From: Escherichia phage vB_EcoM_Skers
Sequence record: MW748999.1
Strand: one strand, 5' to 3'
DNA length: 64,000 bases
Positions 8,646 to 12,265 of the stretch are shown here, in pieces (position 1 is the stretch's first letter; every line of letters starts with the position of its first letter). The notes beneath the pieces were generated by a model. The model was not told where the DNA came from, ran no database searches, and saw only the letters and a program-made list of their open reading frames with translations. The position numbers and the translations under genes were made by a program.

Positions 8646-10037
8646 TCAAATATAGTCTACTCGATACCGCGCACGGGTAACACCCACATATAATAACTGC
8701 ATTGCCAATTCAAAGTCAACATTGTCTGTACACATGCAAGGAGTATACAGGAACACGCGGTCTACGCTGATCCCTTGTGACTTATGAATGGTGCAAGCTG
8801 GTAATGCTTTTACATTCAAGAACATACGCTTCATCGTCCAGAAGGAATCCCAATCTGGTTTAAATTTTGGATTCTCTTTCTTCATTTCGCGATATTGTCC
8901 GGCGACCGTATTCAGATAGATAGAGAAAATGTTCTTCTGACGTTGTTCTGTCAGAATGTTGATTTCTACTAAATCTGGTTTATCTGTAGTGATTCCGACT
9001 GCATCTAAACCGACTTTCTGATTTAGGATTTCTTTGTCTTCGTCATCATCGACGCTTTCCACTTTCAGAGTATAGCCTAAAACTGGTTGCGGATCTACCC
9101 CCGTGCAACGTAATGTAAATTCGCGCGGGATGACCTCTTTAACTCGGATCATCTCACCATTGTTAAAAATAACATTGGGAATCTTCTTCCCGCGTTCATC
9201 TCGCAGATATTCGATCAATGGTTCCTGAGTAACCAGAATTTCATCTACAATCACTGGTTCATCGGTGTTATAAACGCGCTTACGCACAATTTCATTGAGT
9301 TTTTCGACGCTCTTGTTAGTGTAGGCCAGAATACGGTTTTCTAGCAGGTCTTCCGGCGTTTTAACGGTTTCGAAATAATGCTTCATAAACTCCGGCAGAG
9401 TTGAGCTATGGAATACACCCTCGTTGCCGCACTGCTTTTCGAATACCCATTTACCATTACGGACAGCGGTCGCCACATCAATGATCGGTGCATTAGATCG
9501 TTTAATTTCTGTCAACTCCACGTTTTGAAAATTTTCATCCGTGAAGAAAGGAGAGATCGACGTTGCACCGCTCGGATCAACTGGTCGTAACTGGTGCGGA
9601 TCGCCAACTGCAATAACAACAATTCGACCGTTGATACTCTTCATGAGAATATCAAATAGTTTCTTATCGACCATACTCGCTTCATCAACAATGATGATCT
9701 GAACATCATCTAGCTTAGGAGTATCTTTTTGTTCAAATACTTGAGTATCTTCATAGTTGGTTGGATTTAGTCGCAGTAGTGCATGTAAAGTAAATGCTTG
9801 ACGACCTACCGCCTTACTCAAAACTTTTTTAGCCTGGTGGGTAGGCGTTGCCAAAACCACACCAGTTACACCACGGCGGACCATTTCCTGAACAATGAAT
9901 TTCATCATTGCGGTTTTACCAGTACCCGCCGCACCACGGACAGTTGTATGCTTCTTTTGTTCAATACGTTTCATTAGAACATCAAAAGCATGTTTTTGCC
10001 CGTCTGTTAACATATCGAAAGTTAATACTCTGCTCAT
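8646..10037 (-). CDS. dda: Dda DNA helicase (SF1)
   Basis: 463 aa; Walker A GAAGTGKT, DEASMVD motif II; N-terminus LTDGQKHAF like T4 Dda. Confidence 0.85.
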   Translation of the reverse strand: MSRVLTFDMLTDGQKHAFDVLMKRIEQKKHTTVRGAAGTGKTAMMKFIVQEMVRRGVTGVVLATPTHQAKKVLSKAVGRQAFTLHALLRLNPTNYEDTQVFEQKDTPKLDDVQIIIVDEASMVDKKLFDILMKSINGRIVVIAVGDPHQLRPVDPSGATSISPFFTDENFQNVELTEIKRSNAPIIDVATAVRNGKWVFEKQCGNEGVFHSSTLPEFMKHYFETVKTPEDLLENRILAYTNKSVEKLNEIVRKRVYNTDEPVIVDEILVTQEPLIEYLRDERGKKIPNVIFNNGEMIRVKEVIPREFTLRCTGVDPQPVLGYTLKVESVDDDEDKEILNQKVGLDAVGITTDKPDLVEINILTEQRQKNIFSIYLNTVAGQYREMKKENPKFKPDWDSFWTMKRMFLNVKALPACTIHKSQGISVDRVFLYTPCMCTDNVDFELAMQLLYVGVTRARYRVDYI

Positions 10038-10387
10038 TATCCTAAAATCCTCACCTTGCGAACACAGATAGTATTGAGTTCTCGCCGTACCCGTTCTTTT
10101 TCATATTCAGGAATTTTATATTCGATACCATCCCGAACAATTTCAGAAGACCGGATTATGCCAAATTTTCGTTTAGGTACAACCTTGTATTTCGGTTCAC
10201 CCGCCAATAGACTCTCACAATAATCTATCTGATCACACATTGACGCTAACGCAGCATCATGTGTTTCGCAAGTTAGGACGCGACCCTTCGCGTCCACTGA
10301 GTATTGAAAGAATCCGTCTTTATCACGATAACATACAGCAAATACATGCATTATAAACCTACCTTCGCTTTCATCAATTCGATCCAC
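10037..10387 (-). CDS. hypothetical protein (dda.1 position)
   Basis: 116-aa minus-strand ORF. Confidence 0.4.
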   Translation of the reverse strand: MDRIDESEGRFIMHVFAVCYRDKDGFFQYSVDAKGRVLTCETHDAALASMCDQIDYCESLLAGEPKYKVVPKRKFGIIRSSEIVRDGIEYKIPEYEKERVRRELNTICVRKVRILG

Positions 10388-11106
10388 GACGCATCAATCG
10401 GAAGCCCGTATTTCACGCGTTCTTTTTGTGCTGGCGTTAAGTTCTCATACTTAGAAAGAGATTCAATCAAAACGCTGGTATATTTTAGCACGATTTCGGT
10501 ATTGTTTGCAATAGCCTTAAGTTTTTCTTCTTTCTTGTTGATTTCGCTAAGGGCTTGCTTGAGATCTGCAATTTTCTGATAACGTTCTTCCATACGTAAG
10601 AGAGTATTTTTAATCGCTCGCTCGGCTGCCTCTGCTTTCTCCGGTTCGTTGTGCTTTTTGTGGCGCTCTATTGCTAATTTCTTTTCTTCGATTGCCATTT
10701 CCTGATTTTTGATGCGATTCTCGTTAAGTTCGATCCACTCGATGTACTTCGCACGTAGGGCAATTTCATCATCAGAAAGTTTACCGTTAGTTCCTAGTTC
10801 CTGGATCTCTTTAAGAGATTCGATAGTGTGATTGCCACGGAAAGAATTGTATTTCAGTTTAACCGGAATTACATTGCCATCAACATATCCCAGATTGCAA
10901 TCAATGCGCTCTAAGGAGAGTCCGTCATCACCTTCACCGAAAGCCTCACCTGAATAGGCACAATGAGTCTGGCGGTAAATGTTACGCACAGTGACTAAGC
11001 TCATAGAGAAGTCTTTGTTGCGACGTGAAGCACCAGCCATGATAGAGTTCAGCCGGAAAACAACCAGCGCCAATTCTTCGTTAGATTTAAAAGCAAACAG
11101 TTTCAT
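10351..11106 (-). CDS. hypothetical protein with C-terminal coiled coil (occupies the T4 srd position; identity not established)
   Basis: 251 aa; GGAGAA SD; heptad-rich C-terminal half. Confidence 0.45.
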   Translation of the reverse strand: MKLFAFKSNEELALVVFRLNSIMAGASRRNKDFSMSLVTVRNIYRQTHCAYSGEAFGEGDDGLSLERIDCNLGYVDGNVIPVKLKYNSFRGNHTIESLKEIQELGTNGKLSDDEIALRAKYIEWIELNENRIKNQEMAIEEKKLAIERHKKHNEPEKAEAAERAIKNTLLRMEERYQKIADLKQALSEINKKEEKLKAIANNTEIVLKYTSVLIESLSKYENLTPAQKERVKYGLPIDASWIELMKAKVGL

Positions 11107-11135: not shown

Positions 11136-11164
11136 ATTATTGTCTATCTGGTTTGTGCTGTCAA
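11136..11164 (-). promoter_or_regulatory. sigma70-type early promoter candidate
   Basis: TTGACA on minus strand 17 nt upstream of an AATAAT-like -10, just upstream of start at 11106. Confidence 0.35.
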
Positions 11165-11167
11165 CAC

Positions 11168-11671
11168 TTAAATTAAAGAAAATTTGTAAATCTCTATCAG
11201 ATCGCCATTACACGCGTAAACTTCCTCGATCTCATCAAGGATCATGGTCGTCCCTGTCTTGTATATGCACTCGCGCTCATCTGCCAACATAGCATACAAA
11301 GACAGTCGAGTAGTCGGATTGTCATACTCTTTAGACACCACTCGGTCAATAGCATGTTCGTAATAATTCATGCAAGGCTTGGTAGGTTTTATTGCAATAA
11401 TCTTTCCTGTTGCATAAACATCGGTTGCAAAGTCCTCTGCTGTTGATTGCAGTGGCGTAAAGCTCATAGGACGCTCTACAACGAAAGAATCGCCTACAAT
11501 TAAGGTATCCAGCTTACGGCCTTCTCTTTTGCTCACACCGCGATACAAGGCTTCATGATGCACTAACCGCTCAGTCTTTTCAATCAATCCATTAAGGATC
11601 GACATATCGATATTTTCTTTAGAGTTCATCACCTCATCAATGATGTTAAGTTCTTCTGGTGTAAATTGCAT
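11168..11671 (-). CDS. putative mono-ADP-ribosyltransferase (ModA/ModB-like R-S-E class)
   Basis: 167 aa; candidate R (LYRGVS), STS-like (MSFTPLQST) and ExE (ADERECIY) motifs in the expected order; synteny with T4 modA/modB slot. Confidence 0.4.
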   Translation of the reverse strand: MQFTPEELNIIDEVMNSKENIDMSILNGLIEKTERLVHHEALYRGVSKREGRKLDTLIVGDSFVVERPMSFTPLQSTAEDFATDVYATGKIIAIKPTKPCMNYYEHAIDRVVSKEYDNPTTRLSLYAMLADERECIYKTGTTMILDEIEEVYACNGDLIEIYKFSLI

Positions 11672-11740
11672 AATAAAAAAGCCTCCAATCTTTCGACGGG
11701 AGGCATAATAAAACCATTATAGAGTAGTGTCAACTAATTT

Positions 11741-12265
11741 TTAGTAGCCGCGTTCTTGACGGGCGAAGTTTTCAGCATTTTTCAGATAGTACAGAATAAA
11801 GAGTTCTTGAGCGTCAATACCCAGCGGGATCATCTTTGACAGAATGAAGTGGATCGCGTCCACAAATTCAAATTTCACTTCAAGCTGATCTTCCGGTGAC
11901 AGTTCAGAGAATTTACGCGCTCGCGCTTCCCCGTGGTTCTTTTTCCACATTTTCCAGATTGCACTTGCATCTTTACCATTGGACATTCCACCCAGCGATG
12001 TGTAAAGCTCTCGTGTTTCGTCTGCGATAGCGTCATCCATCCGTTGCATCCAATCCAGCATTTCACCGCAAGTCTCTAGCTTAGTTGGATTTGGGACCCA
12101 ATCAAATTTTTCGGATAATGCAACCTGCAAACCAGTTTGCATTTCGAGCATCACCTGAAACGGATCTTTACCTTCTGCAATCGCGTGATGATATGCGGCG
12201 ATAGCCGCGTTAATATCTTTTTCGTTAACCAGACCAGCACAAGAATTAAATTCTGACATATTCAC
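11741..12265 (-). CDS. 56: dCTP pyrophosphatase (MazG-like dCTPase/dUTPase)
   Basis: Matches T4 gp56 as recalled: KDPFQVMLEMQ, KLETCGE, RELYTSLGGMS, SPEDQLEVKFEFVD, LYYLKNAENFARQERGY. Confidence 0.8.
   Translation of the reverse strand: MNMSEFNSCAGLVNEKDINAAIAAYHHAIAEGKDPFQVMLEMQTGLQVALSEKFDWVPNPTKLETCGEMLDWMQRMDDAIADETRELYTSLGGMSNGKDASAIWKMWKKNHGEARARKFSELSPEDQLEVKFEFVDAIHFILSKMIPLGIDAQELFILYYLKNAENFARQERGY

Follow-up and report, generated by a model that had tools for sequence, protein, structure and literature searches.

The locus and its neighbourhood

The DNA analysed here, a stretch of 64,000 nucleotides from Escherichia phage vB_EcoM_Skers, referred to below as the window, carries on its minus strand a gene, mod, located at positions 11168..11671 (stop codon included). 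The gene encodes a putative Mod-family ADP-ribosyltransferase of 167 amino acids, identical to the protein named 'ModB' in phage RB49. The first-pass annotation had reported this reading frame together with three short motifs, LYRG, MSFT and ERE; all of them are present as described, and their codons were verified in the raw sequence. In both the list of open reading frames and the raw sequence, the minus-strand frame begins with ATG and runs for 167 codons. A GGAGG Shine-Dalgarno sequence lies 10 nt 5' of the ATG, and the stop-to-stop frame, which reaches only 15 codons further upstream, contains no other start codon. The short length of Mod is therefore real, and not the product of a mis-called start. 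The remark that Mod is shorter than its T4 counterparts is borne out, its 167 residues comparing with 200 for ModA and 207 for ModB.

Genes are arranged in the window in the order 61 - 56 - mod - srd - dda.1 - dda. Downstream of mod are located the genes for Srd (PHROG 1400, E 9e-74), for a Y01A/Dda.1 protein (Pfam, E 1e-20) and for the Dda helicase, while a MazG-like pyrophosphatase gene ('56') and then the primase gene are found upstream. The same neighbourhood (61, 56, mod, srd, ORF012c/dda.1, dda) surrounds the gene in RB49 and its Krischvirus orthologues, the RB49 order reading 41, ..., 61 (primase), 56, modB, srd, ORF012c, dda, dexA. In T4 the order is modB - modA - srd - dda.1 - dda. 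The placement of the gene in a modA/modB slot was thus correct, since srd - dda.1 - dda adjoin mod as they do in T4; lying immediately before srd, mod occupies the place of modA.

Two neighbouring genes deserve a comment of their own. Gene 56 (11741..12265, minus strand), labelled '56 dCTPase' in RB49, encodes a MazG-like NTP pyrophosphohydrolase (PHROG 173, E 5e-37), and its product reaches only 24.8 bits against the Pfam model dUTPase_2. In the window it lies directly between the primase gene and mod; in T4, the segF, soc, mrh and srh genes and the modA.2-.4 genes separate gene 56 from modB. The Dda.1/Y01A reading frame (10037..10387, minus strand) was called from a GTG start, by which it overlaps the end of srd (10351..11106, minus strand) by 37 nt. 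The RB49 counterpart is annotated with 104 amino acids, and would start at an ATG at position 10351 (MHVFAV...); this downstream ATG is probably the true start.

Signals upstream of mod

A hairpin of the form GCCUCC...GGAGGC is predicted at 11681..11704 on the minus strand, with a folding energy of -15 kcal/mol (z = -3.5), and is followed by a run of six U residues. The ribosome-binding site of mod, GGAGG (11682-11686), is part of its 3' arm. The hairpin had been missed by the terminator scan, its loop being above the limit of the scan, and was found by reading and folding the sequence. It directly follows the -10 hexamer of a promoter-like site of the sigma-70/T4-early type, TTGACA-17-TATTAT (11705..11733, minus strand), which fits the consensus at 11 of 12 positions; promoter-like sites are no more numerous in the mod region than in shuffled sequences, so that this one is to be read as a consensus match only. 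Folding indicates that a transcript starting about 7 nt past the -10 hexamer, being without the 5' arm, would form no hairpin and would leave the ribosome-binding site free. On these energy and consensus predictions, the hairpin may act as a terminator, or as a translational mask, only for transcripts reading through from gene 56, while mod would be served by a promoter of its own. Similar layouts of hairpin and promoter have been described at some T4 genes.

A second site matching the consensus at 11 of 12 positions, TTGACA-17-AATAAT, is located at 11136..11164 on the minus strand, within the 61 nt that separate the stop codon of mod from the start codon of srd. The match suggests that srd may have an early promoter of its own.

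Homologues and family membership

Mod was compared by tblastn with 50,697 phage records. The protein is 100% identical to the RB49 'ModB ADP-ribosylase' (AAQ15305.1; AY343333, 8917-9420) and is encoded without any change in further Krischvirus genomes as well, and about 56 Krischvirus records hold it at an identity of at least 99%. A further 432 records, that of T4 modB included, hold homologues of less than 60% identity under the names ModA/ModB or RNA polymerase ADP-ribosylase. Mod homologues are counted in 490 phage records. RB49-type records match at one place, many T4-type records at two. The gene is therefore already known, as ModB ADP-ribosylase, in RB49 and in many of its relatives, and there is no difference between RB49 ModB and the protein of the window. 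At the DNA level, the 6 kb around mod are 98-99% identical to the listed Krischvirus genomes, which indicates that the window comes from an RB49-like phage of the T4 type.

More distant comparisons connect Mod to both T4 enzymes. Residues 2-153 match PHROG 832, 'RNA polymerase ADP-ribosylase', with an E-value of 1e-20. In pairwise BLASTP, the match to T4 ModB (E 8e-11, 33% identity) covers 113 residues in the N-terminal two thirds only, the C-terminal third being too diverged for BLASTP, while that to T4 ModA (E 2e-6, 23% identity) covers 159 residues and passes through the ExE motif. A word-indexed search for homologues returned three close relatives; when it was repeated with an alignment including T4 ModA and ModB, 15 were obtained. 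When 1.84 billion cluster representatives were searched with a profile, 220 relatives were detected at E <= 0.001, among which are both single-domain forms of 160-190 amino acids and domains within proteins of 2000-7000 amino acids. PF26816 is precomputed for every database homologue, including the clusters of T4 ModA type and ModB type. On these sequence comparisons, Mod is a member of the T4 Mod family (ModA/ModB; PHROG 832; PF26816).

No significant match to Mod was found in the local Pfam-A library, the best being DUF5507 at a below-threshold E-value of 0.13; T4 ModA and ModB have no significant match there either, and NCBIfam returned none for any of the three proteins. These negative results carry no weight, since libraries which miss the T4 enzymes as well contain no usable model. 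When the family profile was run on the reading frames of the window, mod scored 8e-69, a circular result, the reading frame itself being part of the profile alignment; the same search revealed no second Mod-like gene within the 64-kb window at E < 10.

Catalytic residues

The first-pass annotation had read the motifs of Mod as an R ... S-x-T ... E-x-E arrangement compatible with mono-ADP-ribosyltransferases (ARTs) of the R-S-E type, and had made this proposal depend on the positional equivalence of the residues to those of known ARTs. Such equivalence is observed for all three elements. R44, the arginine by which the R-S-E triad binds NAD, contained in LYRG (codon 11540..11542, minus strand), forms with G45 the column of R73-G74 in T4 ModB and R72-G73 in ModA in a three-way alignment, and its column is invariant in both family alignments. 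S70, the first residue of the S-x-[ST] motif S70-F71-T72 (11456..11464, minus strand), is likewise invariant, and aligns with the serine of S-F-T in ModB and of S-A-S in ModA. E132 and E134, of the catalytic ExE motif E132-R133-E134 (11270..11278, minus strand), share their columns with the E-Q-E of both T4 enzymes in the three-way alignment. In an alignment of 12 sequences the R-G, S and ExE columns show little or no variation, and all three elements are found in 34 of the 34 full-length representatives obtained from the profile search. For T4 ModB, R73 has been reported to be needed for both ADP-ribosylation and RNAylation, the R73A variant being inactive (PMC10468400).

The motif string was rejected as a diagnostic when taken by itself. 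A loose R..SxT..ExE pattern is matched by 17% of the shuffles of the Mod sequence, and by 4 of the 42 window reading frames of 120-260 amino acids; the stricter form [YFW]RG..Sx[ST]..ExE is matched by chance by one of these four, a 232-aa reading frame at 53420..54118 (minus strand). This latter gene encodes a nucleotidyltransferase of the RlaP family (RNA repair pathway, DNA polymerase beta-like; Pfam, E 6.6e-14). It is homology and predicted fold, and not the motif, that raise the Mod observation above chance.

Predicted fold

An AlphaFold2 model of Mod, built from the 12-sequence alignment, has a mean pLDDT of 88.3 and a pTM of 0.81, with a compact core predicted at high confidence. In the model, strand 42-45 ends with R44, strand 69-72 holds S70-T72 and precedes helix 75-85, and E132 and E134 are placed at the junction just before strand 135-137. 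Such a layout is expected of R-S-E ARTs, where R belongs to strand 1, S-x-S/T to strand 2 with a helix after it, and ExE to the beginning of strand 5, and the predicted fold is that of the solved members of this class. A search of PDB sequences with the single Mod sequence returned no match, while the family profile gave a marginal one (E 0.02), which places the ExE segment onto the EQE segment of the ART-fold effector XopAI. Homology, catalytic columns and predicted fold together support the reading of Mod as an R-S-E mono-ADP-ribosyltransferase.

Toxins of the C3/VIP2-like R-S-E type (VIP2, 1qs1; Certhrax, 4fk7; C3, 1g24; iota Ia, 4h03; Tre1, 6drh) are 8-21% identical to Mod. Unlike these, Mod is without a secretion, translocation or immunity partner, and would be an intracellular early phage protein of minimal size.

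A short clade within the Mod family

Alignments reveal two regions of the T4 enzymes which are missing from Mod. About 30 N-terminal residues of ModA and ModB have no counterpart, and a segment of 8-12 residues is absent between helices 103-113 and 119-132. When 33 sequences were placed in a neighbour-joining tree, Mod and five other proteins, ranging in size between 161 and 176 amino acids, form a clade of their own with 100% bootstrap support, which falls outside both the T4 ModA and the T4 ModB clades; being a simple distance tree, it does not settle the deep branching of the family. Since the short clade belongs with neither, the targets of neither T4 enzyme can be transferred to Mod.

T4 ModB (NP_049636, 207 aa) is an arginine-specific ADP-ribosyltransferase and RNAylase of S1, EF-Tu, trigger factor and L2. 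It belongs to the same family as Mod, shares with it the LYRG, S-F-T and ExE columns, and is likewise encoded in the early region; Mod is 40 residues shorter, lacks the N-terminal stretch and a 12-residue insert, and stands in a separate clade. That Mod is a functional orthologue of ModB, modifying the same four proteins and RNAylating with NAD-capped RNA, is possible, if doubtful. The BLASTP score is slightly better for ModB than for ModA, the two motifs are LYRG and S-F-T as in ModB, in place of LWRG and S-A-S, and the RB49 database annotation reads 'ModB'. However, LYRG and S-F-[ST] predominate across the family as a whole, and are probably ancestral, so that sharing them with ModB is no sign of orthology. 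The limitation of the BLASTP match to the N-terminal two thirds, the location of mod next to srd and the bootstrap-supported separation of the short clade also argue against this reading. The 'ModB' label and the note on S1, EF-Tu and trigger factor in the RB49 record are thus nominal, and orthology gives them no support.

T4 ModA (NP_049635, 200 aa), which ADP-ribosylates Arg265 of both RNA polymerase alpha subunits, is also a member of the family, and its gene is, like mod, directly upstream of srd; it differs from Mod in its LWRG and S-A-S motifs, in its greater length and in its clade. A role of Mod equivalent to that of ModA, lowering host and early transcription through modification of the same arginine, can be entertained only tentatively. 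The position of the gene is consistent with it, as are the BLASTP alignment with ModA, which spans the whole catalytic core including ExE, and the name of PHROG 832. In addition, the early promoters of RB49 differ from those of T4 at a position said to contact ADP-ribosylated alpha, and on the strength of this difference alpha modification is thought to be relevant in RB49 (PMC1524935). On the other side, Mod lies outside the ModA clade, its identity to ModA is only 23-25% (alignment and BLASTP), and the name of a PHROG family is no test of the target.

Targets of the ModA type and of the ModB type appear about equally plausible for Mod, and a broader or defence-directed role would be possible. 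That the short Mods of 161-176 amino acids have a target spectrum different from those of both T4 enzymes is rather unlikely; it is suggested by their lack of the N-terminal stretch and of the insert, by their forming a clade of their own, and by mod being the sole gene of its kind in the window, as in RB49-type records with their single tblastn match. One minimal Mod might for instance serve both RNA polymerase alpha and the translation factors, or its main role might be directed at host defence, as reported for the related Alt.

Proposed function of Mod

Mod is very probably an active, arginine-directed mono-ADP-ribosyltransferase, and would be the single Mod-family enzyme of a Krischvirus phage. 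Its catalytic activity, its arginine specificity, the timing of its expression and its targets are inferred from the mechanism described for the family, that of an early phage enzyme which uses NAD+ to transfer ADP-ribose to arginines of host proteins (PMC2988021, PMC3014915, PMC10468400). In the proposed sequence of events, mod would probably be expressed early, its transcripts coming from a sigma-70-type promoter of its own or from read-through across the early region. The protein would bind NAD+ in a C3/VIP2-like ART fold, with R44 and S70 positioning the dinucleotide, and the loop that precedes the fifth strand would supply E132-x-E134 to catalyse the transfer of ADP-ribose onto arginine side chains of host proteins. 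Like T4 ModA, ModB and Alt, Mod would thereby aid the take-over of host transcription and/or translation, and possibly the evasion of defence.

No enzyme assay was found, in the literature searched, for an RB49-type Mod or for any protein of the short clade. The missing N-terminal residues and the missing internal segment might change or weaken catalysis or the binding of substrates, and would be the ground for regarding Mod as a catalytically inactive ART-fold protein, serving for binding or as a decoy. This is very improbable, because all three motif elements are intact, and are kept in relatives at 63-74% identity and throughout the short clade, with the pattern of conservation expected of an active enzyme, and because the core of the predicted model is compact and of high confidence.

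The macrodomain protein

A second gene related to ADP-ribose is located at 50626..51081 on the minus strand. The macrodomain assigned to its product in the first-pass annotation is real, reaching 28.9 bits against the Pfam Macro model (cut-off 22; E 1.2e-6). The protein is an orthologue of T4 Tk.4/AdfM, being 44% identical to Tk.4 over its full length (E 4e-45). According to a 2025 preprint, tk.4, renamed adfM, is the single T4 gene needed when DarTG2, a host defence acting by ADP-ribosylation of DNA, is present, and Tk.4/AdfM is reported to counter this system (bioRxiv 10.1101/2025.11.20.689424); the use of orphan antitoxin-like erasers to oppose DarT toxins is well established among phages (PMC11825919). 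The nearest PDB sequence matches of the macrodomain are 5m3i, TARG1/OARD1 and the thymidine-ADPr hydrolase SCO6735. Entry 5m3i, deposited under the molecule name 'RNase III inhibitor', is presumably the DarG macrodomain of M. tuberculosis.

The suggestion had been made that the phage would encode both a writer and an eraser of ADP-ribosylation. Both domains are indeed encoded in the window, and T4, like the phage analysed here, also possesses an ART together with an ADP-ribosyl hydrolase; a functional pairing of the two is very improbable. A dedicated pair would consist of a writer and of a hydrolase which is linked to it, or distributed with it, and which is able to cleave the linkage formed. 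The two genes are instead 39 kb apart, and macrodomain homologues occur in 2736 phage records, which belong to many genera and of which many come from phage groups without Mod, as against the 490 with Mod. Among ADP-ribosyl hydrolase families, cleavage of the linkage between ADP-ribose and arginine is not known for macrodomains. The products of ModB are arginine-linked N-glycosides, which are removed by ARH1 and are resistant to NH2OH and to ARH3 (PMC10468400).

As an orthologue of Tk.4/AdfM, which T4 reportedly requires only in the presence of host DarTG2, and with the nearest solved relatives listed above, the macrodomain is unlikely to erase the modification made by Mod, and the idea that the two proteins act on the same substrates, in a reversible ADP-ribosylation controlled by the phage, is highly improbable. 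Most likely, Mod modifies host proteins, and the macrodomain cleans the phage DNA of ADP-ribose inflicted by the host.

Significance

The identification of Mod matters little beyond annotation hygiene, as the enzymes of T4 have already made both the family and its chemistry well known. What is added here is a confirmation at the level of residues and of predicted fold, the recognition of a distinct short clade in place of a ModB orthologue, and the placing of the macrodomain in the Tk.4/AdfM family. With its 167 amino acids, Mod is among the smaller R-S-E ARTs in which all motifs are intact, and could be suitable as a minimal model enzyme. For the biology of the phage, the picture of a writer and its eraser would be replaced by that of two separate systems: Mod for the take-over of the host, and a Tk.4/AdfM-like macrodomain against host DarT2.
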